A DNA stretch of 28,075 bases. Origin: a virus (taxonomy: Duplodnaviria > Heunggongvirae > Uroviricota > Caudoviricetes). The notes beneath the pieces are model-generated. The model had not been told where the DNA came from. It saw only the letters and a list, made by a program, of their open reading frames with translations, and did no database searches. Where the stretch lies: IMG/VR virus record IMGVR_UViG_2744054962_000004. One strand, 5' to 3'. Position 1 is the stretch's first letter. Each line of letters begins with the position of its first letter. The translations under genes and the position numbers were made by a program. Positions 3,540 to 22,057 of the stretch are shown in pieces.

Positions 3540-3749
3540 CTATTTTTCGTTCTCTGATGCCTCAAACGTCTTGGAGTGAGGGCAGGACTGTGAGCGCGTC
3601 ACCAGCGTGAACAGATAAATGTTGCTTTCGTAAGTGCAAAGCCGTTTTCCGCCCTGTAACTCTTGTTCGTCGGGGTTGCTCATGGTGATTTTTCCTGCAT
3701 GAGCCGCCAGCGGCAGCAGTGCCACAACAAATAGTAAAATTTTCTTCAT
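3540..3749 (-). CDS. small secreted protein (signal peptide MKKILLFVVALLPLAAHA), function unknown
   Basis: The track ORF 3540..3755 begins at GTG; the in-frame ATG at 3749 gives MKKILLF... with a classic signal peptide and an AHA-G cleavage context. Mature part ~50 aa with two Cys. Confidence 0.45.
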   Translation of the reverse strand: MKKILLFVVALLPLAAHAGKITMSNPDEQELQGGKRLCTYESNIYLFTLVTRSQSCPHSKTFEASENEK

Positions 3750-4729
3750 TTCCACAACCTGCCCTGTAGGTGTCCCGGCTCTTTATCCTCCAAGTTTACA
3801 TTCTCCTGTTGAAAATATCCCCGGCTCTGTTGGTGATCTGCTAGACCGTCAGCCCAGACCCTCGGTGAAAAGCGCTTTTCTTCGCCAAATATCGCTACGT
3901 GATGCCTTCAGCGACACGCCTCACTGCAACAAGCAGTGCAGTTACACAATGCTGCTTTGGGCTGAGGCAAGGGAGATAACTTGATGTTTTGAAGTGCCTC
4001 TGTTCACTAATTGTACAGTCATTTAACATATTGTATCTTGCATGTACTTGACTGGAATGGTCAGGTATTGCTTTTCGGAGCGTTGATGCGAAGCGGGGTA
4101 CACAACAGCGATTTCACCAACAGAAGGAAAGCATTCAGGAGGATTCGAGGTGAGTTCTCTTGTTCAAGGATTTTGGATGAGTTTGCCTGGTCATCAGACA
4201 ATTTCAGGTTTCAGGCCTTTGAAGCTGCCAGCGTGTCAAACCTGCTGAAAGTACAATTTCCTATTTGCCAGCAGAAAAAGAGCTACTACGGCGACGTTAC
4301 CACAACGGGTTGAAGGTCTGCCATCACCTGGTGATATTCACCGAGCCAGGCCGCCACTGTTTCGTACCATTTCCCACAACAATGTAAACAGCCACATCAA
4401 TAGCCCAGCATACGCTCTCAGCGCTGCTCTACGGCGTTATCTCCACACAATCGTGAACTGACAACGCCATGATCCACGACTTCCCATAGCGCGATAGAGG
4501 AGCCTCCAGAGGGGGGTGGTTTTGGTTTTTTGTATGATGTTTTATTTTTTATGGAAAAATGGTTCAGATAGGTGGTTGTGTTTAGCCTCATATCCACCAA
4601 CATATTTAACGCACCCAGCACTGGCGCGGCTTCGTTGTGTAGATCACGACATAACAATCACTACATCCCACAGGCGAGCCAGTGACAACAGACAGGATTT
4701 TCTATCAATTAACAGGTATTAAAGCTCTA

Positions 4730-5101
4730 TTATTTCCCGCCGAAAATCCAACCGATGATGGCACCGATTACCGCAGAGCGGGTCTCACCTGCTGCTCCTT
4801 TGAGAATGTTAATAACTGCATCGCCTGCACCAGGTGCCTGCTGTTGAAGTAAATTCAAACCACGAGGTGTTAACTTGGCGGCGGTGTCCATGTCGGTTGA
4901 AGAGATTATCTCCGTGTAACCCATATCGCTGAGAGCCTGGAGTGTGTTGCACAGCAGGTCAATCTGAGTTCTGTCTCCTCTGGGCTTCCAGCCGAAGTCT
5001 GAAAAATCGAAAGATGAGTAAGCCGGATAGTCCGCAAACAGTTTCACCAGGATTCCAGTTGCCATCTCGTTAAAGCTGTCTTTGCCTTGGACGAATTCCA
5101 T
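4730..5101 (-). CDS. hypothetical protein with a C-terminal glycine-zipper hydrophobic tail
   Basis: 123-aa ORF with ATG start and a good SD (aaggaaa). C-terminus ...GETRSAVIGAIIGWIFGGK is a GxxxG-type amphipathic/TM-like tail. Transcribed divergently from the control region at 5102..5851. Confidence 0.5.
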   Translation of the reverse strand: MEFVQGKDSFNEMATGILVKLFADYPAYSSFDFSDFGWKPRGDRTQIDLLCNTLQALSDMGYTEIISSTDMDTAAKLTPRGLNLLQQQAPGAGDAVINILKGAAGETRSAVIGAIIGWIFGGK

Positions 5102-5129
5102 AATGTTTCCTTTTGTTCACTGATTGAAC

Positions 5130-5300
5130 GAGGTTACTCAGTTACGGCAGGAAGTACCAGTCAGAAGTCATCGGTAACGAATACATATGAAAAGAAGTTT
5201 TCATCGGTAATGGTTACAGATGGGTCATCAGTAACGGTTACGCACCAATAAGATCAATATATTAAGATCAAATAAAAACCATTAAGATCTTTAAAACCTT
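5130..5300. repeat. iteron/operator-like direct repeats in the divergent control region of island 1
   Basis: TCATC(G/A)GTAA(C/T)GG occurs at ~5168, ~5201 and ~5225, with a related GGTTAC motif nearby. A(A/T)TAAGATC occurs at ~5247, ~5261 and ~5281. Confidence 0.5.
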
Positions 5301-5684
5301 AAGGTCAAAGGCAGGGTGAACTGGTGTTCACTAGTTGGTGTTAAGGAGTGATGCTTCTGTATCGCTCTGCTCTGAATGGCTCTGCCACTTCAGATATGTG
5401 TGGAAGACAAGCCGCGAGGCGCGTCAGTCAAATGTGGATCGAGCACGGCGCAGAGGAGCTTTAAACGCGACGTAACTCCCCCCTTGGAGGGGCGGCGGTC
5501 CCCCCTCAATCTCGCAAGGCGATAACGGCCCTCTGATTCTGTGGCGATGCCATGAGGCACAGCGGTCCTGTAACGCTCCCTGTCGCGTTCAGAGCGTCTT
5601 TCTCCTGTTGCTGGTATTTGTACCGCTTCGCTTAGGGCGTTGAATCTTAAGCGTCTGAGAGCGTTTTGTGATAAAGGGATTGAC

Positions 5685-5800
5685 AAAGAAAAGGTATATG
5701 TATAAAGTTGCGGGGTATTGACATAAAACACTTCCATTTCTTTATTCTTTAAGTGAGAAATCGGTTGACAAAGAAACTAATTTATAATAAACTATATATT
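5685..5800 (+). promoter_or_regulatory. promoter region for the 5852.. operon with duplicated TTGACAAAGAAA boxes
   Basis: TTGACA at 5690-5695 and 5765-5770, both followed by AAGAAA, plus a third TTGACA at ~5720; A/T-rich -10 candidates follow each. Exact -10 and start site not resolved. Confidence 0.4.
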
Positions 5801-5851
5801 ATCAACTGAGATGATTTTATGAATAAACAATAACTTAAATAGGAGAGATGC

Positions 5852-6280
5852 ATGGGGAAACCTGTTCTGTTCGATTTCTCGAACGCCACTGCCTCAGAGA
5901 TTGTCGCTGCAATCGATGCAAAAATTACCACAGCTCAAAATCTGCACGCCTTCCGCACTCGTATGGGCGGTGCCAAGAAGGCCGATAAGCTCTATCCAGC
6001 TACTCGCGAAGCACTGAACATCATTAAACGCCTGCGTCAGCAAGCGAAAGACGCAAAAATCATCCGGGATATTCTTAAACCATACTCAGCAGAGTTGGCA
6101 AAAGGCCGTGATGTTATGGAAATCATTGAACCAGTACTCTCTGCCTGGCGTGTCTATTACGCTTCTCATGGCATCGGCTTGATGAATGAACAGATCCTTC
6201 TGCTTAAGATGATTGAGTCTGGCGGTGAACTCGAAGGCATTACCGGAAAACCCATTCCAGAACTGACCACAACCGAATAA
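5852..6280 (+). CDS. hypothetical protein, first gene of the island 1 rightward operon
   Basis: 142-aa ORF with ATG start and SD AGGAGA 5 nt upstream; no recognisable motif. Confidence 0.55.
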   Translation: MGKPVLFDFSNATASEIVAAIDAKITTAQNLHAFRTRMGGAKKADKLYPATREALNIIKRLRQQAKDAKIIRDILKPYSAELAKGRDVMEIIEPVLSAWRVYYASHGIGLMNEQILLLKMIESGGELEGITGKPIPELTTTE

Positions 6281-6409
6281 CCATTCTCTGCTTTACACCG
6301 TTGGCAGCAACGCCACCAAACGAAATCGCCGCAAACACGGCTTCTTACTCCTGATCGCCATCCGCGATAGCAGGAGCGATAACTATTATGCATTCGGGGG
6401 GAACTTGAT

Positions 6410-6601
6410 ATGAATTTGAAGATTCAACAGCACGTATACGCCGGACTTTTAGAAGAAGCGAAGCGCCGGGGAACAACTGTTCCAAACCTTGCACGCGAAG
6501 TGCTAGAAATCGCCGCCCATCTTTTTGATAACGGTGAACCTTTACCCGCCTTGGGGAATATTAATGGAGATAATAATGAACAAAAGAGCGTCGCAAAATA
6601 A
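6410..6601 (+). CDS. small hypothetical protein (63 aa), possibly DNA-binding
   Basis: ATG start, weak SD. Its 3' end overlaps the start of the next gene. Function not recognisable. Confidence 0.4.
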   Translation: MNLKIQQHVYAGLLEEAKRRGTTVPNLAREVLEIAAHLFDNGEPLPALGNINGDNNEQKSVAK

Positions 6602-7376
6602 ACCAGAACTATGGATTGAAGAAGATCGCCGCCTTTTCTATGCAGATGCAATCACAATTAAGTCCACTGGTGAATGTTTCAAAGTCGAGGATAAACTTGC
6701 AAAGATCCATACCTATATGGTGGATCAATACAACAGCTACCAGGCTGATGGTAAGAGTTTCTACGAAGATCAGCGCGATATCGCGACTAAATGTAAATGC
6801 ACACCAAAAACTCTTGGCAAGTGGCTGAAAGTTCTTCAAGCACTTGGTCTACTTATCATTGATGAGAGCCAGAAGAGCCACTCTTACACGGTGCGGTCAG
6901 TAGTCAGCCAGGAACACAACTTGATTTTCAGCTATCCGAAATTGTTGAACGGCAAGCCGTCATACGACCATGAAGAGACGCTTAAACGCCTTTATGCATC
7001 TCAGGGACGTAGGAACGTAAAAAATCATCAGCCAAAAACCGAAGAGAGCGGTAAGAGTGAGCAGAAACGTGATGTGGAATCTTTCATGGTGGGATCTGCC
7101 GCGCCTGCTGCTGGAAAACCAGACGGCATACCTGCTGTGGATATTCCTGTCGATGTTGATTTATCCGGTAGTGATGATCCATCACTGAGTGATTCAAATG
7201 GGAGAAATGTCGTTGAGTTCCCGCGAAATTGTAGACCCAAACCCAGTTTTAAATTTGTAGCCCCAGATGATGACGACCACGAGGAAATCCATCAGGAGCA
7301 GGAAACCTTTATTGAGCCAGATGTTTGCCACGAACCAACGCCGGAAGAAATTGACGCTGCGGTAGCTCTTATGTGA
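6576..7376 (+). CDS. putative replication initiator / winged-helix DNA-binding protein with acidic C-terminal tail
   Basis: The track ORF begins at TTG 6525; the in-frame ATG at 6576 has SD GGAGA 5 nt upstream. Segment ...FYEDQRDIATKCKCTPKTLGKWLKVLQALGLLIIDESQKSHSYTV... is a helix-turn-helix plus wing pattern. C-terminus is strongly acidic (DDDDHEEIHQEQE...). Island 2 has a protein of the same architecture at 19503..20072. Confidence 0.55.
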   Translation: MNKRASQNKPELWIEEDRRLFYADAITIKSTGECFKVEDKLAKIHTYMVDQYNSYQADGKSFYEDQRDIATKCKCTPKTLGKWLKVLQALGLLIIDESQKSHSYTVRSVVSQEHNLIFSYPKLLNGKPSYDHEETLKRLYASQGRRNVKNHQPKTEESGKSEQKRDVESFMVGSAAPAAGKPDGIPAVDIPVDVDLSGSDDPSLSDSNGRNVVEFPRNCRPKPSFKFVAPDDDDHEEIHQEQETFIEPDVCHEPTPEEIDAAVALM

Positions 7377-7388
7377 TGGAGGAATGAA

Positions 7389-7865
7389 TTGTGTGAACAC
7401 GTAAGCGGTGTACTGACCGCAGATGAAGAACAAAAGCTATCTCGCCTTTTCTCCGTCTTGGAGAATCCGACATATAAATCCCGGTCCAAACCATCCGACT
7501 TGGAAACACAACGTAAAGCCCGTTTGCTATTGAATCGTGGGTTTTCACTGCAAATTGTCGCAAATACACTAGATCTTCCGTTTGCTGAAGTCTGGCGGCT
7601 CGCACGTCAAAAACAAGCGGTGACCTGGGCGATGATGACACCGACAGCCCGGACAGAATTTGTCCGTGAAATGTGGTCACATCGGATGCACCCGGAACAG
7701 ATCCGCAAGCGTTGCGATGGTCTGTCATACGTAAGCCTTCGATATTACCTGCATAACGCCGGGATCACTGACGCTGAAATGTTGGGTTACTACCCAGACG
7801 TGTTCGCGAATATCTGCAAGTTGCCGACAGTGAAGAAGAAGCGCACTAAGCGTAAATCCAAATAA
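7389..7865 (+). CDS. hypothetical protein with basic C-terminal tail (possible DNA-binding / small-terminase-like)
   Basis: 158-aa ORF starting at TTG 7389 with strong SD GGAGGA 5 nt upstream (no in-frame ATG near the 5' end). C-terminus KKKRTKRKSK. Confidence 0.45.
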   Translation: MCEHVSGVLTADEEQKLSRLFSVLENPTYKSRSKPSDLETQRKARLLLNRGFSLQIVANTLDLPFAEVWRLARQKQAVTWAMMTPTARTEFVREMWSHRMHPEQIRKRCDGLSYVSLRYYLHNAGITDAEMLGYYPDVFANICKLPTVKKKRTKRKSK

Positions 7866-8030: not shown

Positions 8031-8363
8031 ATGAAAAACGTAAACGACATCCGCGCCGATATTCTCGCCGCAATGCAGGCCGCTGCCGAACCGGAGAGCG
8101 GAGATCTGAATAAAAGCGCCGAGCAGGTGTTGGCTGATGCCATCGAGGGATATCTGACCGCTTCGACTGCAACAGCCAGCAAATCAGCCCCGAAAGCAAA
8201 GACCATAAAGGAAAAAGGGATCGCTCTGTGCCACCAGGCCCAAGGTTATAGCGCTAATCTGCGTCCGGTAAGTCTCATGATGAAGGCAAGTCTTGATGAG
8301 CTAACACCTGAACAACGCGCCGCGCTTGAGCGTCTGGGTTACGATATCAATCAGGGGGTGTGA
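8031..8363 (+). CDS. hypothetical protein (110 aa)
   Basis: In-frame ATG at 8031 inside the GTG-initiated track ORF 7974..8363. Stop TGA 8361-8363 overlaps the start of the next gene (TGATG), suggesting translational coupling. Confidence 0.45.
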   Translation: MKNVNDIRADILAAMQAAAEPESGDLNKSAEQVLADAIEGYLTASTATASKSAPKAKTIKEKGIALCHQAQGYSANLRPVSLMMKASLDELTPEQRAALERLGYDINQGV

Positions 8364-10510
8364 TGTCTGGTAATATTATAGTTAGCACCCTAACAAACCG
8401 AGTGGTCTGGGATGTCGATCAGACAAGTTACGGCAAAGCCTTAAAGGCTGTTAAATCCATCAAAGCTGCTCACGAGAAGCCCGCTAAAGCGCTGGAGAAG
8501 GCCCAGAAGAGGACCGCTCAGATGGAAGGCAAGGCTTCACTAGCATCGGCTAAGGCTCAGACAGCGAAGCTCCGCCAGGCTGAACAATTGTCAAAACAGC
8601 AACAGAAACAAGCTCAGATACAAGCCAAAATGGAGCGGGACGCAATCGCCCACGCCAATAAAATGACCTCATTACAGGCTCGCCAGTTATCTCAGCAGGA
8701 GCAGGCAGCACGGCAGAATGCCCGTTTAGCAGCGATTTCTGCAAAAGTGCAGGCCGCAGCCAGATCACGAGCGATGACCTACAACCCAAACATGGGCGGT
8801 CAACATTACGATCCTGGTCTTGTTTCCCGCCAGACTGACGCAATGAACCGTGGTCACGGCGCTGTTGCTGCCGACATTGCAGCCACTAAAAGGGCTATGG
8901 CCTTAGAAGAAAAGCGCCAGCGTGAGAAAGAGGCCAGTCTTAAACGCCAGAGCACTGCATACGATACTCTGCGCCGTGCCAGTTTAACTATCAGTCATAT
9001 CGAAGGCGCTAGCCTGGCTGACAAGATGAAAGCTGTGCAGGCAATCAAAGAGGCTACCAAGGGATACTCCGAGCAGCGTTACACCATCGCAGAAATGCGC
9101 CATGAACTTGCTAAAGCGACTCTGGAAACCAGGCGGCAGGCACGTATTAACCGCCAGATTGTTAAAGATAAAGCGAAAGCCAAGCGAGCAGGGCGCATCA
9201 ATGCTCAACGTCTGACCAGTGAACGTAGCGAACGTGGTTATGGTGGCCTCGCTGCTACTGGTGTAATTGCAGGTGGTTCCCTGATTGGCTCAATGGGGGT
9301 TGCTCGTGTTGGTCAGACACTACAGGGCAGTGTTGAACGCAACCAACAGATGAAGGCTTTACAGTCTCAAGGCATCTCACGTCTTGAATATGAAGCTGTG
9401 CGCGATGTTGTCGCCAACAAAACCGGCTTTAATATTTCTCCAGACAAAGCCCTTGATTTTTCTGCTGACTATAACGACAAAGTGGGCCAGTTGACGGCTA
9501 ACGGAACATGGAAGACCAACAAAAACGGTCAATCAACGTTGTCCGGTGGTGGTGAACTTGGTGACCTTATCAACGCTATTGCAGGCAAATCCAACGTTGC
9601 CACGGCAAAGCGCGTTGTTAAAGAACTCCAGGGTATCGACTTTAATCTCTTCCTTGTGTACCTCAAGCAATTGCAGAAGACTTTTAAGTTCACGGATAAA
9701 GAAACAGCCGCTTTTGCAGAAGCGATCAACGACGCAAGCAAGATCCTTCCGGCATTTGCTGATGGTGGTGAAGCTGTTCAGAAACGTATGGATGACCTCG
9801 CCCGGAATGGTTACGCCCTGAGCGAAGCACAACAGGAACAGCTAAACCGCCTAAGCGCTCTCTCTGTTGAATATTCAAGGATCAACGATTCGTTGAGTGA
9901 TATTTTCAGCTCAGGTTTTGCTGATGGGTTGGGAGAGGTTGGCAAGAACACTTCCAGCTTTAGCAAAGGTATGGCTGGCCTCGTTCCTATTATGGATAGT
10001 TTGGGGAAGGCTGTAGGCCAGGTGACTGCTGATATGTTGTTATTTGCCGGACGGGTGGGCCAACGTGTTAACGAGGGTGCAACACTTCCGGATGCAGTCT
10101 ACAACACCGTTGTGGATGATTCCGCAAACGGTGCTGCCGATTGGATTAAGGAAAAGACCGGCTTTGATCCACGTAGCATCGGTCAGACGCTTAAGCAGAT
10201 TTACCCGTGGCTAGATAGTTCAGCACCAAGCAATATCGGCTCAGGCACAGCGTATAACGATCCAGCGCTAGCGTTGAATGTTCCAGGTCTAAACTATCAA
10301 ACACCCCAGCAACCAACGTTTACGGTTCCGACAATTGATAGCATAGTTCAGCGACAGCCGATTCCTGTTGCGGTCACTGGCGAAGCTGAGATTAAACTCT
10401 CACCGCTTGATATTAACGTGAATGACGGCGCTATTAACGGTTTGATTGATACAAAACTGAGGAGCTATGAGCAGGCACAGAACAACATGATCCTTGGTAT
10501 TGCTCAATGA
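8363..10510 (+). CDS. large coiled-coil protein with Gly-rich hydrophobic segment (tape-measure-like or scaffold-like phage structural protein)
   Basis: 715 aa from ATG 8363, SD AGGGGG. N-terminal ~300 aa are K/A/Q/R-rich heptad-like sequence. Central GGLAATGVIAGGSLIGSMGV hydrophobic Gly-zipper. N-terminus and architecture parallel the 613-aa protein of island 2 (24151..25992). No Walker A motif. Confidence 0.6.
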   Translation: MSGNIIVSTLTNRVVWDVDQTSYGKALKAVKSIKAAHEKPAKALEKAQKRTAQMEGKASLASAKAQTAKLRQAEQLSKQQQKQAQIQAKMERDAIAHANKMTSLQARQLSQQEQAARQNARLAAISAKVQAAARSRAMTYNPNMGGQHYDPGLVSRQTDAMNRGHGAVAADIAATKRAMALEEKRQREKEASLKRQSTAYDTLRRASLTISHIEGASLADKMKAVQAIKEATKGYSEQRYTIAEMRHELAKATLETRRQARINRQIVKDKAKAKRAGRINAQRLTSERSERGYGGLAATGVIAGGSLIGSMGVARVGQTLQGSVERNQQMKALQSQGISRLEYEAVRDVVANKTGFNISPDKALDFSADYNDKVGQLTANGTWKTNKNGQSTLSGGGELGDLINAIAGKSNVATAKRVVKELQGIDFNLFLVYLKQLQKTFKFTDKETAAFAEAINDASKILPAFADGGEAVQKRMDDLARNGYALSEAQQEQLNRLSALSVEYSRINDSLSDIFSSGFADGLGEVGKNTSSFSKGMAGLVPIMDSLGKAVGQVTADMLLFAGRVGQRVNEGATLPDAVYNTVVDDSANGAADWIKEKTGFDPRSIGQTLKQIYPWLDSSAPSNIGSGTAYNDPALALNVPGLNYQTPQQPTFTVPTIDSIVQRQPIPVAVTGEAEIKLSPLDINVNDGAINGLIDTKLRSYEQAQNNMILGIAQ

Positions 10511-11438: not shown

Positions 11439-12473
11439 ATGGGACTATCAACCAATTTCAGCTACGCGGATTACACCAATACCTTTGTTAACATGGATGC
11501 AAAGAACACTTTGCTGTCCACGCTTAATGTTTTCAATGATCGACAGACTTCGGCTAGTCCAAAGGTCAGCCTTGATATCATTGATGAAGTAGCCCAGAAG
11601 GTGGCAAGCTCTGTTAATCGTTACGGCTCTGAGTGGTCCAGCATTCCTAAGCGTAGCTCTAGCAATCACCTTATCGAAGCTCCGCTTTATGCTTATCAGG
11701 ACCGTATTACAGCGGCAGACGTGCAACCATACCGCAAACCAGGTTCCGACCTGCAAATGTCTGTAATGGATGCGGTCACTTCTTCTGCTGTCGCAATGCA
11801 CGATAAGTACATGCGTACCCGTGAGCGGATTTTTGCTGATGCGCTTTTTCGTAATACCGTCGAAGCGACCTACACCCAGCAGCCAATCATTTCCTGGGAA
11901 GATGAATTTGGATACCAACAGGCAACCGGGACAATCAAAACCAGCGTTAGCTCTGGTGACCCACTTCGCAGCCTCGATGATGCAGTAACCGCTGCTAAAG
12001 TGCGCATGGGGGGCCTGGCTGGTCAGCTTGATGGATTTATCCTGTTTGCAGGTAGCAATGTTTATCGCGGCATTAAGTATCACCCTGATGTTCGTCAGAA
12101 TGTTCAGTTCGGTGTGCTTGATCGGGATGTTCTGTTTAATAAAGAAGTGCTTCCGGCATTCTCAACATTCATCATTGAAAATGTTCGAGTGGTGGAGGTC
12201 ACGGATCAGGCACTATACGGAATTGGTCCGGATGAATCCTTCCTGGTTCCACGCTTTAGCAAACCGCTGTCTTCGGATATTGCTCTGCCCTTCGGTTATG
12301 TGGCAACGGCTACCAGCCGCAATCTTGATCTGGCATTTGCTGATCCGGTTGATTTCCGTATCTGGAGCGTACAAGACAAGTTTAAGAACGTTGAGCTATT
12401 CGCGGAAAGCTCTATCTTGCCTGTTGTGTACCGCCCGGATTTCACTACACGACTGACGAACGACGCAGCGTAA
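11439..12473 (+). CDS. phage-structural-like protein, ~344 aa (major-capsid-E-like or major-tail-like)
   Basis: ATG start with SD AAGGAG 8 nt upstream. N-terminal region is similar to the island 2 343-aa protein (STNFSY...NTLLSTLNVFND vs STYFGV...NTLITNLDLFDV). Size and pairing with the upstream small gene mirror the lambda D/E arrangement, but fold not verified. Confidence 0.5.
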   Translation: MGLSTNFSYADYTNTFVNMDAKNTLLSTLNVFNDRQTSASPKVSLDIIDEVAQKVASSVNRYGSEWSSIPKRSSSNHLIEAPLYAYQDRITAADVQPYRKPGSDLQMSVMDAVTSSAVAMHDKYMRTRERIFADALFRNTVEATYTQQPIISWEDEFGYQQATGTIKTSVSSGDPLRSLDDAVTAAKVRMGGLAGQLDGFILFAGSNVYRGIKYHPDVRQNVQFGVLDRDVLFNKEVLPAFSTFIIENVRVVEVTDQALYGIGPDESFLVPRFSKPLSSDIALPFGYVATATSRNLDLAFADPVDFRIWSVQDKFKNVELFAESSILPVVYRPDFTTRLTNDAA

Positions 12474-14986: not shown

Positions 14987-15022
14987 CGAAGGTCGTAGGT
15001 TCGACTCCTATTATCGGCACCA
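14987..15022 (+). repeat. junction att core: displaced 3' fragment of tRNA-Thr (with CCA) between island 1 and island 2
   Basis: cgaaggtcgtaggttcgactcctattatcggcacCA: identical to tRNA positions 41-74, followed by an intact CCA end; no 5' half present, so not a functional tRNA. Confidence 0.85.
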
Positions 15023-15847: not shown

Positions 15848-16006
15848 TTAAAGTCGTTTAGTTAACATCGCCATTGCTTGAGCAATAATTGCAACAGCGT
15901 CCATCTCTTCACTGGAAGCGATGCAAATGCGGTAACTAATAGCCACAATGAATACATCAATAACGAGAAAGTGAATAGTGTGAAGATGTTTTGAAAGTAA
16001 ATGCAT
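15848..16006 (-). CDS. small hydrophobic protein (52 aa), function unknown
   Basis: ATG at 16006 with strong SD GGAGG and 5-nt spacer; my reverse-strand translation is MHLLSKHLHTIHFLVIDVFIVAISYRICIASSEEMDAVAIIAQAMAMLTKRL. In a different frame from the TTG-initiated track ORF 15862..16071. Confidence 0.4.
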   Translation of the reverse strand: MHLLSKHLHTIHFLVIDVFIVAISYRICIASSEEMDAVAIIAQAMAMLTKRL

Positions 16007-16400
16007 AACTTCCTCCGGTTTTGGGATAGGAGGATTAGAACATGCATTAAATGATGTTGCAAGAATGGCAATTTACCCTAATAGTCTACTATTCACCTCA
16101 ATCTACGTCAACCAATATTTGATGTAGATTTAATTTTCTTTTAAAAACAATATGTTGTTATTTGTTGAATTTTGGGGTTAGGTTGTTTTTTGAACGTTTT
16201 CATCAAGTGTAAAGATACGTTTAGCCTTCATAGTGAGTTCAGTTACTGTCTTTTTCTCTGAAATCGGCGCAAACGTGATCATCGCTTGAGGTTGCTGCTC
16301 TTACTTCTCAAATTGTGATGGAGAACGATAAAGGTTAGAGGGCACTTTTATTTTTTTAAGCAAGTGTATAGCATAAGAATAATCTAAAAAGGGAGGTTAT

Positions 16401-16952
16401 ATGCGCAGGTCTGCATTTGTGAGGATGATGATTTTTACAACGTTGTTTGTAGGGGGAACTTCTACCGCAGTTGCTAAAAACTGCAAAAAAGGAATACCTT
16501 GTGGTAACTCGTGTATAGCTGTTGGTAAGACGTGCCGGATTGGCTCTTATGCCCCTTCATCTTATAAAAATCATTCATACTCTTATCCTTCATCCTCTAT
16601 TCGAAGCTCGCAATCAAATAATTCACGAAAAACTGAAGGAGTGAAAACGACTCCTGCTGCCAAAAATTATCTTTGCCAATACTCTATTGCATCAATCGAA
16701 AACGGACGTTTAGGGGCATTACGTGTTCAGGGATACGCACAAGTAACTTTATATGCAGATAGCTTCAAGGCTAACAGATTAAATGGAACATATTTGATAT
16801 CGCCAAAACTGAATGCTAACGGCAAGTTTATGATGGCAGATGATAAAAGCAAGGTTTATGCTTATGATTCTTGGCTATTAAATTTTGCAATAAGCGATCG
16901 TATCACAAGAACGACAGAACAATGGGATCGATGTAAGCTCAATCAAAAATAA
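16401..16952 (+). CDS. secreted Cys-rich protein (signal peptide), function unknown
   Basis: 183-aa ORF with ATG start and SD GGGAGG. N-terminal signal peptide (MRRSAFVRMMIFTTLFVGGTSTAVA) followed by CKKGIPCGNSCIAVGKTC cysteine cluster and a Ser/Tyr-rich linker. AT-rich. Confidence 0.55.
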   Translation: MRRSAFVRMMIFTTLFVGGTSTAVAKNCKKGIPCGNSCIAVGKTCRIGSYAPSSYKNHSYSYPSSSIRSSQSNNSRKTEGVKTTPAAKNYLCQYSIASIENGRLGALRVQGYAQVTLYADSFKANRLNGTYLISPKLNANGKFMMADDKSKVYAYDSWLLNFAISDRITRTTEQWDRCKLNQK

Positions 16953-18080
16953 CAGTTAGAGAAGCTCTTGTAGAGGCATTATTGAGTTATTGGTTTTAAT
17001 ATTTTTGTGCCTCTATGGGCTTTTTTTGCCTTTTTGCAATGTAGAAGAGAGCACAGGAATCGTTAAAATTAATTATTGGGGTATTTAAGGTTATTTTCAG
17101 GTGATTTAAGGGTATTAAACGTAATTTAAGTGATTAAAATATAAACAGGTTGTTCTGTATCTTATTGATTTATAAGGTTGTTTTCAAATAAAGGTAAATA
17201 AAAAATAAATAGCCATAAATAGCTATAAATACATCTAAATACATATGAATCCCCTCCCTTATGGCTAGATTGCGAGAGGTGCTTAACGCGATTTTCAGCG
17301 CCCCCCGATCTGGAAAATCCAGAATCCCCAAATATCAGCAAGGAATTTTCTTGCGTAATCAACATCGTTTTTACCTATTAAATCATTACACAGAAAGCCT
17401 TTCTGTAATGTCTCTCACTAAACTTTCACTAAACACGAGAATGATCGGTTTTATGTCGGATCAGATGCTAGAAACAGCACCACGTCTCACAAGGGCTGTA
17501 AGCGATGAAACCAGTGTTTATGCGGGTGCAGGTCAAAATATAGGCCAAAATACATTTAACATAATAATCGTAATATGCACTAAGGAACACATAGAACGCC
17601 TTGAGTTGATGTATCAGGGGAAAAATGGTGTATTTTTTACGTAGGAGCACGAGAGGGCTTCTATTGACTTTTGTATGCTATGAAATATAATAGAAGATTT
17701 TTTATTTTTATGTTGATAGTGATTGCACATTAAAGATTGAAAGCAAATTTAAACATAAATTTTCAACACGTGAAAGAACTTGTTCAACAAATGATAGAAC
17801 GTTTATTGAGCAACAATTTTGCAGTGATGCGCTATATGCCGCATAACATAAGGCTTTGCTGATGATGACGCAAAAGTGAAGAAAGTAAGAATTGCATTTT
17901 GAAGCCATTTTTCTTGGATTTTTTAGTATGGAATTACACAGGGATTAATCATCAATTAATCTTGAATTTAAGCTTGTTTTAGATGTTTAATTTTTGATAG
18001 CAAGAAAGACTTTTACTGATTATAAGAAGATCATTGCACAGATGTTATGTGATGGATGTAACGGTAGGTCACTGTGAGCT

Positions 18081-18217
18081 ACCCCCACAGAATTCTGTTA
18101 TCCTTAACTTTTAAAGAAATATGCACCCTAACAGAAAACTGTTACCCCAACCCTAACAGAATTATGTTAGACACCCCCACAGAAAACTGTTAGCCACCCC
18201 TACAGAATTTTGTTACC
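18081..18217. repeat. five iteron-like direct repeats (~22-23 bp), candidate replication origin or operator array
   Basis: acccccacagaattctgttatcc (18081), accctaacagaaaactgttacccc (18125), ccctaacagaattatgttag (18151), acccccacagaaaactgttagcc (18172), acccctacagaattttgttacc (18195). Consensus CCCYMACAGAAWWNTGTTA with internal dyad ACAGAA..TCTGT; four copies are tandem at ~23-bp spacing. Confidence 0.7.
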
Positions 18218-18908
18218 TATTAGATCAACTATCAAACTACAATTAAATTATCTTTTATAAATTCTTTTATCTTTAAAGAATAATTATAGGGATACCCGTT
18301 AGGGAGTCTTCGACTATCCCTTAATCTATTGGCATTCGCCAGAACCTTGCACAAGTTAGAGTGTTAGTCAGTTAGACTGATACTTCTCATAACACATAGT
18401 TTTTGTTTGTTAATGTTAGTTAGTAGATCTATGTTCGCTTTCCGCTCACAACGAATATGTAATCTACTATGTGCAAATAGCCTACGGCTTGCGTAAGGCT
18501 AAATAGTCTTGCGCTGTGCGCAGAACGATAATTAACTAACTACCATCTAACGATCATCAATCATCTAAAATAAATTTCTTGTGCAATGTTCTTGCGAATG
18601 CAATTAGGGTAGCGTTACCCCTTTGGGGATGCTAACGCATAACTATAGATCAACCATCAAACAGACAAAAAAGAAAAATATGGTTTAAAGATGTTAGGTA
18701 GTAGATGAGTTTCTACCGCTTAAATCAAACCGTAGGCGAGCTAAACAGCCATTACATAAGGGAATGTATTGTTTTTATCAAAACCTCGTTAGAACGCGTT
18801 TTAGAGCGTTTTAGACAATAATGAAGAATTGGAGTATTCGTAAGAGCACGAATTGCTAAGAAAAATCATAACACACTGAAAATGATCAATATTTTTATGG
18901 CTGGGGGG

Positions 18909-18937
18909 TTGACAAAAGCCTTTAGTCGTGGTAAAGT
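18909..18937 (+). promoter_or_regulatory. sigma70-like promoter for the island 2 rightward operon
   Basis: TTGACA (18909-18914), 17-bp spacer, TAAAGT (18932-18937), about 120 bp upstream of the first ATG (19059). Confidence 0.4.
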
Positions 18938-19058
18938 AATATTAGGGGCAGGAAAACATTCTTATCCTTTAAATAATTAAACCAATGCATCGCACTTTGA
19001 AGCCCAAGGCTTGCAAGGTGTCTATTTCTTTTAACTAAATAGAATAGGAGGTTAATTA

Positions 19059-19259
19059 ATGAAATATTTCACTCCACAGGATATTGTGGAAGCCTGGAAA
19101 CGTGGTGAGATCAACCGTTTTAAAGTAAGGATGAACAGGAACACAGCGCGACGCTGTGGTTATCCAGAGCGTGAAAAATGCTTTGACGATGCACTAAAAA
19201 TTATTGATGAATTAAGAAAAAATGAAAAAGGATCTGAAAAAGAATCTGAAACAGAGTAA
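19059..19259 (+). CDS. small hypothetical protein (66 aa)
   Basis: ATG with SD AGGAGG 7 nt upstream; charged, helical-looking; no recognisable motif. Confidence 0.45.
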   Translation: MKYFTPQDIVEAWKRGEINRFKVRMNRNTARRCGYPEREKCFDDALKIIDELRKNEKGSEKESETE

Positions 19260-19278
19260 AGAAGAGAAGGAGAAAACT

Positions 19279-19449
19279 ATGAGCGAAACTACAGAAAAGA
19301 AAAGGCAACCACGCACTTGCTTTCATATTCCTGATGAAGTATTTCAGGTGTTGTTTAAAGAAGCCAGAAGTAAACGTATCACTGTTACAGATTACATTCT
19401 TGATATGTTGAAAAGAGAGGCTGAAACACTCTCAAACAAAAGCAAGTGA
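19279..19449 (+). CDS. ribbon-helix-helix-like DNA-binding protein (56 aa)
   Basis: ATG 19279 with SD AAGGAG 6 nt upstream (preferred over the upstream ATG 19222, which overlaps the previous gene). ...RTCFHIPDEVFQVLFKEARSKRITVTDYILDMLKRE... has the strand-helix-helix pattern of Arc/CopG-type proteins. Confidence 0.5.
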   Translation: MSETTEKKRQPRTCFHIPDEVFQVLFKEARSKRITVTDYILDMLKREAETLSNKSK

Positions 19450-19502
19450 TTTTTATCACCATAGTAGCGCCGTAGAGCGTGATTACATCAAGGAGATTTT
19501 TA

Positions 19503-20072
19503 ATGATTAATGAAGAACAATTTGTAAAAGTTCCTATGTGGATTCTAAAAATAAGCCAAGTAAACGGGCATAAATTTACAGATAGTGCTAAAAACCTTTA
19601 CTGCTATCTGAGAGGGTTTGATCGTGCATTTCCCTCTTACGCTAAGATAGGCGATGTTTTTGGCATAACACCAAGAGCAGCAGAAGAAAGGGTTAAGAAA
19701 TTGCTCGAAATGGGATTAATTATAAAAGATGCACGACCAGGAAGCTCTAACCTTTATCGAGTGCTTGATATTCCAAAAGGAGAATCATCACTACCTGATC
19801 CTTCTGAGAAAGAAGACGAATCTAATGAAATATTGAATGTTTCCGAAATCATCGTTGAAGAAGAAACACAAGAGCCAGAGTTCCCTGAGCGGCCCGAAAT
19901 TTTTACTTGGCTTCTTTCCCTTGATAAGAAGAAACCACCGCACGAAGAAACAGAAGATTTTGTAAAACGAGCATTAGATTCAAAGAATATCTATCTTTGT
20001 GAAAATGATTTTGACTCTTTGATAATTGATCTCAAAAGTGAGAGCACAATATATGATTCACTACCCTTTTAA
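19503..20072 (+). CDS. putative replication initiator / winged-helix DNA-binding protein with acidic C-terminal tail
   Basis: ATG 19503 with SD AGGAGA 6 nt upstream (track ORF starts at GTG 19479). ...YAKIGDVFGITPRAAEERVKKLLEMGLIIKDARPGSSNLYRVL... HTH plus wing. Acidic tail (EKEDESNEILNVSEIIVEEETQEPEFPE). Counterpart of island 1 gene 6576..7376. Confidence 0.55.
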   Translation: MINEEQFVKVPMWILKISQVNGHKFTDSAKNLYCYLRGFDRAFPSYAKIGDVFGITPRAAEERVKKLLEMGLIIKDARPGSSNLYRVLDIPKGESSLPDPSEKEDESNEILNVSEIIVEEETQEPEFPERPEIFTWLLSLDKKKPPHEETEDFVKRALDSKNIYLCENDFDSLIIDLKSESTIYDSLPF

Positions 20073-20206
20073 GGAAATAAATGATTTATAACATCACAAA
20101 CAATCAGTAACAACAGATCGGGCAATACATATGGCAAGTGCATTTGTAGCAATATTCATCGTAACTATGGCATTCAGTTTTTATAATCCACATAAAAAGA
20201 GGGAAA

Positions 20207-20587
20207 ATGGGAAGAAAGAAAAAGAACAACTTAAAACGTATTGAGCAAGGGAACACCTTCAACGACGTAAGAAAGCAAGTTTATAAGAATAATGAAGAAG
20301 CAGGTGAAGAGATAGTCTTCATTTTAGAATCTAACAGCCCACCACTTACAAACGAAGAATTAGAAATTATTCAATCAATGGGTGATGGTGTGTATTTCAA
20401 ACCCAGAACAAGAAAGACAACGATTATAGAACCTGGCACATTGAAGAAATGGCAATTGTTAGGCTTTACCTCATTTCGTCACTATACAGGCTTCAATTCG
20501 TTCAACAATCAGGTAGGCGGCGTTACAGAAACAGATCTGATGCAGCACCTGATCGACACTCTCGCATCTAACAAACGTTCTAACTAA
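20207..20587 (+). CDS. hypothetical protein (126 aa) with basic N-terminus
   Basis: ATG start, SD-like AAGAGGGA upstream; MGRKKKNNLKR... N-terminus. Confidence 0.45.
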   Translation: MGRKKKNNLKRIEQGNTFNDVRKQVYKNNEEAGEEIVFILESNSPPLTNEELEIIQSMGDGVYFKPRTRKTTIIEPGTLKKWQLLGFTSFRHYTGFNSFNNQVGGVTETDLMQHLIDTLASNKRSN

Positions 20588-20602
20588 TAGAAAGACGGGC
20601 GT

Positions 20603-20848
20603 ATGTATAAGCGCCCAATGAAAATATTCGAAAAAGGAAAAATAATGATTGGCTATATTCAAGAAACACAATTATTTCAGATGCTCCTGTCTGATGCAAA
20701 AAACTATGCTGAGTTAATCCGGCTGGCAAAAGAAACAGAAGACTACGAAGCATTAGAACGTTACCGTGATGAAGTGCTGACGCTCAAGACACCTTTTAAC
20801 ATCGTATTGAATATGATTAATGATGCATTACAAGGAGAATACGCATAA
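20603..20848 (+). CDS. small hypothetical protein (81 aa; alternative starts at 20618 or 20645)
   Basis: ORF with three in-frame ATGs; the one at 20645 has the best SD (AAAGGAAA). Stop overlaps the next start (ATAATG at 20846-20850). Confidence 0.4.
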   Translation: MYKRPMKIFEKGKIMIGYIQETQLFQMLLSDAKNYAELIRLAKETEDYEALERYRDEVLTLKTPFNIVLNMINDALQGEYA

Positions 20849-21150
20849 TGGAAGAAGATATTAGCAATGCAATGGAACAACTTTTAGATCTGACTATCTC
20901 ACTACAAACAAGAATAAATCAAGCCTATTCAGATTTATGCGATTATACGCTCTCTCAATGCGTTATTAGCTTAATGAAGCTCAATGTATGCTTAGAAGAT
21001 TTTGTCTCTCTGGTGAGCGATTTAGAGCTATCAGATGCCAAGATGTGCACTCAAACCATCACAGACACCGCCAGCACGTTAAAGGCTGCAAGTGAAGAGA
21101 TTCAGCAATTAGTAAATGATTTAGCAAAAAGTGCTATTTTCTCTAAATGA
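20848..21150 (+). CDS. hypothetical protein (100 aa)
   Basis: ATG with SD AAGGAGAA 8 nt upstream; start overlaps the upstream stop (translational coupling); predicted helical. Confidence 0.45.
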   Translation: MEEDISNAMEQLLDLTISLQTRINQAYSDLCDYTLSQCVISLMKLNVCLEDFVSLVSDLELSDAKMCTQTITDTASTLKAASEEIQQLVNDLAKSAIFSK

Positions 21151-22057
21151 TAATGAAAATCATTTGCATTTATGATGATTTTGTTATATAATAATTTTAG
21201 GGGTAGATTAAAAGATTTTAGTTGGTGTTAATCCTTCTACTGTCATAAATCCCTGCATATGGAAGGTGATAGCCTCAAAGGTTGAGTGGCATTAACCTCT
21301 AACAAATATTACCTTCCATCTATCAAGAAGTTTTAGAATAATCATAACTCCCTCTTTGATTGTTGATTGTTTCTACGTTGTGTTGATGAATGTTGTTAGG
21401 CATTGTGCTTAATTTTTGATAAAAGCGGGTAGGTGTTATCTCCTTGCCCTTCCCGCTCTTATTTTTCATCTATGCTTATCCTAAAGCTCCTTATTTTGTC
21501 CGAAAACATTAAAGAGCCTTACACTGATAGTTATATTTTATAACTATTTACTAACATCATTAAACTCTTATTTAATGACGGAAGTTAGTAACAGAATAAT
21601 CTATTAAGTTGTTGTCAAAAAACTATCATCTGCATAGCGTTAGCCGCAAGTAGAGAGAGTTTAGCTAAGAATGGTGCAATAAACTTTGGAAATATTGATA
21701 GCAAAACGGGTTTTATAGAATGCGGATCTATAATCTTTGGTTGTGAAACGATTTTCTGAAACGGTAGATTACTGTTGGTGTAGTTAATCCTTATTAAAAA
21801 TTTAATCTGTGAGTAGATTGGAATAGTGATTCCTTAAAATCTGACTGGTGCATCCACACCATGAAAGATAGCGGTTAGCCACCGCGCCCCGAATAGATAT
21901 TCCTGATTGATTCCGCATGTTTTCTTAAGAGCATGTTTTCAGGAGTATCTATTCACCCTTTAAGCATATCATCAAGTATATTTAAAAAGTGTATTTGCTG
22001 ATATGTTTAATCCTCTTATAGTTTAACTTATCAATTATGTAATTGCCCGCACGTTAA

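Follow-up and report, generated by a model that had tools for sequence, protein, structure and literature searches.

We propose that the 750-bp region at positions 5102–5851 of the window (the whole stretch of DNA analyzed, 28,075 nucleotides) is the cis-acting core of a tRNA-Thr phage satellite, combining an iteron-type origin, a module homologous to non-coding DNA of virulent Vequintavirinae phages, and two promoters; we assign to this reading a probability of about 0.6. The evidence comes from comparison of the region with its counterparts in related islands and with the phage element.

Organization of the island and of the 750-bp region

The window is part of an E. coli chromosome. It contains a tRNA-Thr(CGT) gene at 1369–1441, and a 34-bp direct repeat of the 3′ end of this gene, found at 1409–1442 and again at 14987–15020, bounds an island of 13.6 kb with the integrase at its tRNA-distal end. 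Accessory genes come first in the island, followed by a leftward gene encoding a protein of 123 residues (4730–5101), the 750-bp gap, and a rightward operon whose products are proteins of 142 and 63 residues, a DUF6945/HTH_36 protein (6525–7376, hereafter Rep), a 716-residue protein, a lambda-E-type capsid protein, a GNAT protein and the integrase. Because of this gene make-up we regard the island as a phage satellite and not as a prophage. The region 5102–5851 is identical in NZ_CP029747, in which the island is annotated, and in 20 other complete genomes.

A BLAST search for distant relatives reveals related regions, at three integration sites, in 42 of 5,426 complete E. coli genomes (about 0.8 %). 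Twelve loci outside E. coli (Citrobacter, Klebsiella, Enterobacter, Rahnella, Kluyvera and others) were recovered with the 142-residue protein as query, in a search covering one genome per species. A DNA-pattern scan provided 35 further viral and metagenome loci; being retrieved by a sequence pattern, this set favors that pattern, and its invariant columns are in part a product of the retrieval. Comparison of about 35 related islands reveals that the 750-bp region is a mosaic, the modules of which reassort. It is made of four parts, and its features are listed in Table I.

Table I. Features of the region 5102–5851, in window coordinates
Feature	Position	Strand	Remarks
Upstream region and 5′ UTR of the 123-residue gene	5102–5167	−	GTTAC half-sites at 5133–5148
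Three 22-nt direct repeats	5168–5189, 5201–5222, 5225–5246		Core TCATCRGTAAYGG; spacing 33 and 24 nt
AT-rich stretch, GC 0.23	5247–5311		Three AWTAAGATC motifs, then TTAAAACCTTAAGGTCAAAGG
Palindrome H1, GTGAAC-TGGT-GTTCAC	5316–5331		Then T/G-rich tail, 5332–5345
First hairpin module	5346–5403	+	Two hairpins, then TGTGTGG (5397–5403)
Hairpin GAGTGATGC-TTCT-GTATCGCTC	5346–5367	+	Within first hairpin module
Hairpin TCTGAA/TTCAGA enclosing TGGC-TCT-GCCA	5371–5376/5389–5394 enclosing 5377–5387	+	Second hairpin of first module
Phage-homologous segment	5386–5498	+	CACTTCAGATATGTGTGG ... GGAGCTTTAAACGCGACGTAACT ... GGGGCGGCGG
Satellite-only insertion 1	5406–5426		GCC-GCGA-GGC hairpin, within 5386–5498
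Satellite-only insertion 2	5479–5489		CCCCCCTTGGA, within 5386–5498
GC-run inverted repeat GAGGGG-CGGCGGT-CCCCTC	5487–5507		Arms 5487–5492 and 5502–5507, around GGGCGGCG (5490–5497)
Satellite-only conserved block	5508–5679		Stretches CTGTAACGCTC..TCGCGTTCAGAGCGTC, TTGCTGGT, GCGTTGAATCT..AGCGTCTGAGAGCG
Promoter P1, TTGACA-17-TAAAGT	5680–5708	+	Sigma-70 score 10/12
Third TTGACA	5718	+	Weaker
Promoter P2, TTGACA-17-TAAACT	5765–5793	+	Sigma-70 score 10/12
Ribosome-binding site AGGAG	5841–5845	+	ATG at 5852

Positions 5102–5167 are linked to the 123-residue gene and not to the direct repeats: locus L017, which is 94 % identical to the window over 5108–5160, has different direct repeats. The gene itself belongs to phrog_2266, which has no assigned function, and is missing from loci L003 and L004 and from many islands that otherwise keep the region. 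A second stretch of about 1 kb without annotated gene is located at 3756–4729. BLAST of this gap against the phage collection gives no match; the window sequence 3544–4655 is 88 % identical to L004 7340–8453, and in both L003 and L004 about 2 kb without annotation lie at the position of the window gap. Just outside the island, past the att repeat, lies a second stretch of low GC content (0.29–0.40, about 15900–22000).

Direct repeats, putative initiator and AT-rich stretch

The preliminary description had noted three copies of TCATC(G/A)GTAA(C/T)GG and three of A(A/T)TAAGATC in the region; both sets are present and non-random. The motif TCATCRGTAAYGG occurs at 5168 (with one mismatch), 5201 and 5225 and at no further site in the 28 kb, and none of 100 shuffled sequences reaches three sites. 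Palindromes, GTAATGGTTAC and GTAACGGTTAC, lie inside repeat copies 2 and 3. Every island has three to five direct repeats upstream of a conserved AT-rich stretch (about 35 islands), and these repeats fall into at least 10 unrelated families; locus L049 contains two origin-type modules in tandem, at about 6370–7450.

The family to which the repeats belong tracks the N-terminal winged-helix domain of Rep without exception in the 28 loci in which the repeat family was classified and the domain extracted. Between loci of the same repeat family (122 pairs) the domain shows a median identity of 90 % (minimum 54 %), against at most 37.7 % between loci of different families. This co-variation is not one of simple linkage, since the intervening sequence and the first operon gene reassort. 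Indeed, the first operon gene, the 123-residue gene, the subtype of the GC-rich module and the intervening modules are all exchanged independently of the repeats: loci L012 and L016 have the repeats and Rep type of the window with a first gene that is 30–33 % identical, and L017 has its 123-residue gene with other repeats. As repeat family and Rep N-terminal domain co-vary, we propose that the repeats are iterons bound by the DUF6945/HTH_36 protein.

At least three regular direct repeats, an adjacent AT-rich stretch and specificity of the repeats for a putative initiator encoded in cis are thus found together, and we infer from this combination that the repeats and the neighboring stretch of 23 % GC likely form an iteron-type origin active in replication. 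The PHROG matches of Rep are to replication initiators and helicase loaders. Its N-terminus and the phage proteins of 92–98 residues described below match the same families (phrog_8102 "replication initiation protein", HTH_36 and DUF6945); the DUF6945/HTH_36 fold is a generic winged helix, and "replication initiator" is a database label that comes from the PHROG and Pfam matches. The satellite protein is about 160 residues longer than its phage counterparts, and no other candidate replication gene or origin is seen in the island.

DnaA boxes and GATC clusters are common at iteron origins but do not define them, and here they are uninformative: there is no perfect DnaA box, sites with one mismatch occur at chance level, and the clustering of three GATC in 38 bp (5252, 5266, 5286) is not exceptional for the window. 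The origin suggested in the preliminary description is supported by good comparative evidence, namely repeats that co-vary with an initiator-like protein and their AT-rich neighbor, and not by DnaA boxes, which are absent, or by the unremarkable GATC sites.

The AT-rich stretch, with its GC content of 0.23 compared with 0.43 for the whole region, is a candidate DNA-unwinding region. AWTAAGATC motifs are found in it at 5247, 5261 and 5281; the window contains four such sites where 0.71 are expected, a number reached in none of 100 shuffles. Motifs of the types TAAGATC, TTAAAACC and AAGATCTT also occur between the repeats and the promoter of the phage element. The palindrome H1 that comes next exists in five stem variants, GTGAAC, TTGAAC, AATGAC, ATAGAC and TTAAAC, all of which pair. 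H1 is flagged as terminator-like on the plus strand in a scan and, in an alignment made by eye, occupies the site of the sigma-70-like promoter of the phage element; operator, origin palindrome and terminator are all possible roles for it. In L046 the palindrome is a hybrid and pairing is lost.

Iteron-type origins of lambdoid phages and satellites include ori-lambda, the SaPI/PICI origins and the PLE origin with RepA. The proposed origin resembles them in its several initiator-specific direct repeats followed by an AT-rich stretch and then a palindrome, in the location of the initiator gene in cis, and in the change of repeat specificity with the DNA-binding domain of the initiator. It differs in that it lies between genes, ahead of the replication operon, whereas the known origins are situated inside or just after the initiator gene, and in that the putative initiator, proposed here from sequence comparison, is of the DUF6945/HTH_36 type instead of O, a Rep-helicase or RepA_N.

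A module shared with Vequintavirinae phages

Downstream of H1 the GC content rises to 0.61 over 5386–5507 and 0.53 over 5508–5679, compared with 0.23 over 5247–5311 and 0.27 over 5680–5851, and both the GC-rich segment and the gagggg-cggcggt-cccctc inverted repeat reported earlier are confirmed. Residues 5386–5498 are homologous to an element that is non-coding, unannotated and present in a single copy in virulent phages of the Vequintavirinae (Seunavirus, Mydovirus). The first phage match was obtained between the segment of a relative and an unannotated intergenic region of virulent Vequintavirinae phages of about 145 kb; locus L009 is 94.7 % identical to PVP-SE1 and SSE121 over 75 nt (E = 2e-24, 2.3 Gb searched). 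Global alignment of 5386–5498 of the window with GAP31, LNA4 and 4MG gives 68–70 identities over 87–88 phage bases, with scores of 48–49 compared with 7 ± 3.6 for shuffled sequences. Pairwise BLAST of the window with the phages aligns a 21-nt core alone, and BLAST of the window region against the phage and plasmid collections yields no direct match. Since the similarity of the window itself to the phages is modest, the link relies partly on transitive homology by way of the relatives.

In 60 phage records the element is found at one place per record, and it is unique within 48.6 kb of 4MG. Its layout is collinear with that of the satellites. Two short repeats directly follow the gene for a 92–98-residue HTH_36/phrog_8102 protein. 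Next comes an AT-rich stretch, and after it a sigma-70-like promoter, TTGATC/T-16-TATAGT, whose position is shared by three diverged phages. The leader, about 130 nt and non-coding, begins with the hairpin GAAGTG(A)..(T)CACTTC, continues with AGATGTGTGTGGAAG, ..GGCGACAG.., a second hairpin of variable sequence and GGGGCGGCGCG, and also includes a small hairpin in which the ribosome-binding site of the following gene lies. The stretch from GGGGCGGCG to the ATG is not coding, because its length is 13, 15 or 16 nt in different phages. In 4MG (L068) the element, at 133,573–133,799, is embedded in a long cluster of small, leftward genes of early type; leftward and rightward clusters diverge at 137.2 kb, about 3.5 kb away.

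Taken over BIS47, KB57, KPP-1, PVP-SE1, GAP31, 4MG, FENT2 and LNA4, the phage element shares with the satellites the short repeats, the AT-rich stretch with its GATC palindromes, a hairpin ending in CACTTCAGAT, and the motifs TGTGTGGAAG, ..GGCGACAG.. and GGGGCGGCG. The two versions also differ: a palindrome stands in the satellites at the place of the sigma-70-like phage promoter; the phages have two repeats instead of three to five; and the phage element runs straight into a gene, whereas about 170 nt of satellite-only sequence and two promoters come after the satellite version. Phage and satellite versions all share a conserved GGGGCGGCG, and the C-runs that flank it are confined to the satellite subtype of the window. 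The gagggg/cccctc inverted repeat is thus explained by the CCCCCCTTGGA insertion and the downstream C-run, which surround the phage-conserved GGGGCGGCG.

The satellite-only block 5508–5679 is common to about 12 relatives with different first genes and is absent from the phages. An inverted repeat, 5458–5471/5582–5595, was rejected as an RNA helix, being broken in L016 and L023. At the position of window 5619–5628 relatives carry GCTGGTGA, which has seven of the eight bases of the E. coli Chi sequence GCTGGTGG; the window reads GCTGGTAT, and no perfect Chi site is present in the whole window.

In the first hairpin module the stems are kept among relatives while the loop bases vary, with wobble pairs on the plus strand. 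Across the family, 62 unique sites of the type "hairpin + TGTGKGG" are found with 24 distinct stems; a stem of at least 5 bp precedes 84 % of the TGTGKGG sites and 64 % of control positions, an enrichment that is moderate only. An island remnant is found at L005 9001–9100, where an IS3 element cuts just 3′ of this module.

The open reading frame at 5390–5737 on the minus strand, dismissed as nonsense in the preliminary description, exists (115 residues) and has no Pfam or PHROG match; in L003 it is split over two frames, and homologues, which differ by 1-nt indels, do not maintain the frame. A small plus-strand reading frame starting at 5351 was likewise discarded, its frame not being conserved among relatives.

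DNA-level or RNA-level role of the module

The GC-rich module may act as DNA beside the unwound origin or as an RNA leader, two roles that we rank close together. In the second role it would be transcribed on the plus strand as a 5′ leader of helper type, which might sense, titrate or be the target of a helper factor, or control read-through into the operon; we regard this as possible and put it forward tentatively. In the phages the element is almost certainly transcribed, as it lies directly downstream of the conserved TTGATC/T-16-TATAGT promoter and has the ribosome-binding site of the following gene at its end. Stems are kept where loops vary, wobble pairs occur on the plus strand, and in 27 of 35 elements this strand gives a more stable fold than the minus strand, by 9.5–19 kcal/mol in all of five phages, in keeping with the orientation of the phage promoter. 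On the other hand, G+T richness may be all that lies behind the difference between the strands, and the satellites lack the phage promoter, no alternative plus-strand promoter having been found.

Folding analyses also speak against this role. The z-score of the minimum free energy over 5340–5680 is close to zero (−0.01 for the plus and −0.20 for the minus strand). Structure prediction with covariation across homologous islands, as proposed in the preliminary description, gives no support for a global fold: the RNAalifold covariation term is unfavorable (+0.3 for eight satellites and +2 for seven phages), with no compensatory pair in the phages. A tRNA is the sole Rfam match in the window at the gathering threshold, and a search over 4900–6000 at E ≤ 10 gives no meaningful match, including to the P4 CI/C4-type immunity RNA. 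Of the structured RNA suggested earlier, the local hairpins are conserved, and a large stable fold finds no support.

Promoters of the rightward operon and the question of a genetic switch

The box TTGACAAAGAAA is found at 5680 and 5765. As a 12-mer it is weakly significant alone (two sites occur in 6 of 100 shuffles), and both copies are located inside a 24-nt repeat of 83 % identity. The hexamers and the 17-nt spacing of P1 and P2 are kept in eight diverged relatives, the spacer sequences being different, and this conservation bears out the earlier description of a duplicated promoter-like box.

The genetic switch proposed with it is not established: the rightward promoters are conserved, a promoter scan detects no sigma-70-like leftward site on the minus strand, and the 123-residue gene is missing in many islands. 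The last two observations also count against reading the direct repeats as operators, the winged-helix protein as a transcription regulator and the region as a switch. Such an arrangement would fit the repeat/Rep co-variation equally well. Palindromic sites are typical of dimeric repressors, and two of the three repeats contain the palindromes mentioned above; the phages, moreover, carry a bare HTH protein of 92–98 residues and two repeats upstream of a promoter. On the other hand, the conserved rightward promoters are 430–600 bp away from the repeats, a leftward promoter is not detected and the leftward gene is often missing, the satellite protein has roughly 160 extra residues and matches initiator and helicase-loader PHROGs, and the island shows no other candidate replication gene or origin. 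We consider operators unlikely and retain the origin as the preferred reading of the repeats.

Recombination and packaging as alternative explanations

That the GC-rich block is a functionless scar of recombination, left by an exchange of origins with a phage, appears very improbable; the region is highly mosaic and hybrid or broken versions exist (H1 in L046, the remnant in L005), but the module is kept in essentially all of about 35 islands although its neighbors reassort freely, its core motifs are invariant, and its hairpins are maintained by different sequences.

Least credible of all is a lambda-type cosN, the GC-rich inverted repeat being cut and packaged by the helper terminase. The invariant octamer GGGCGGCG coincides with the lambda cohesive end GGGCGGCGACCT over the first 8 bases of the latter and lies, as in lambda, in a two-fold symmetric GC-rich site, and the island encodes a lambda-E-type capsid protein. 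However, the agreement does not extend to the remainder of the end (over all 12 nt, 9 bases are shared between GGGCGGCGGTCC and GGGCGGCGACCT), cosQ and cosB (R sites) are absent, with no GGGTCCT upstream and no similarity to lambda 1–200 or 48200–48502, and the motif with its flanks is homologous to a Vequintavirinae element that is internal and not terminal. A search of the GC-rich segment against 50,697 phage records gives no lambdoid or other match even at E ≤ 10. 

In KPP-1 the direct terminal repeat of 514 bp is located at 116,316–116,829 (PMC9862379), and the KPP-1 element, near 129.2 kb, lies away from it. Copies of the left boundary of this terminal repeat are present in two related islands, at L049 5440–5513 (88 % over 74 nt) and L017 1578–1622 (93 % over 45 nt), and probably represent a packaging signal that the islands have taken over from the helper; none was detected in the island of the window.

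Probable helper phages and proposed mechanism

The N-terminal 165–230 residues of the 716-residue protein (8360–10510) are about 30 % identical to the N-termini of Vequintavirinae-type tape-measure proteins (72 records, phages of about 140 kb), and could be a mimic that interferes with helper tail assembly or hijacks it. Besides the shared non-coding element and the HTH_36 domain, this similarity connects the island independently with the same phage group. The capsid protein (11439–12473) matches Pfam Phage_cap_E and gives no tblastn match in the 50,697 phage records at E ≤ 1e-5. Because the capsid protein has no detectable phage relative in these records, the assignment of the helper depends on two features only.

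We suggest the following explanation for the region as a whole. The winged-helix protein of the island would bind the three TCATCRGTAAYGG repeats, which with the 23 % GC stretch would constitute an iteron-type replication origin. The module beside it would have been acquired from, or be shared with, virulent Vequintavirinae, the probable helpers; in the satellite the palindrome would have replaced the phage promoter, and the leader would have been elaborated with extra hairpins and C-runs. The module would then, in our view, couple the satellite to its helper, acting either as a leader of helper type or as a site at which replication proteins of the helper enter or prime beside unwound DNA. 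The rightward operon would be driven by the sigma-70 promoters at 5680 and 5765.

The satellite P4 shares its cos site and late promoters with its helper P2. The present islands would resemble this pair in carrying copies of non-coding helper signals through which helper proteins act on the satellite. They differ in that the shared element is not proven to be a packaging site or an activator-dependent promoter, and in that the presumed helper is virulent and not temperate.

In the searchable literature we found no description of satellites of rV5-like Vequintavirinae. The islands may, tentatively, be an undescribed satellite family of these virulent phages, and the module a new cis element that captures helper machinery. 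It would consist of units of the type "hairpin + UGUGUGG" and of the invariant GGGGCGGCG, would have been copied from the single-copy, origin-proximal leader of the helper, and would capture its replication or early-expression machinery.

Iteron origins and promoters are ordinary, and the main interest of the region is the probable derivation of its GC-rich module from a helper phage. The region links a chromosomal island of Enterobacterales to large virulent phages used in phage therapy (relatives of rV5, PVP-SE1 and KB57). The conserved single-copy phage element is in turn a candidate origin or early control site of the Vequintavirinae, and the satellite versions are natural variants with which this element may be dissected.
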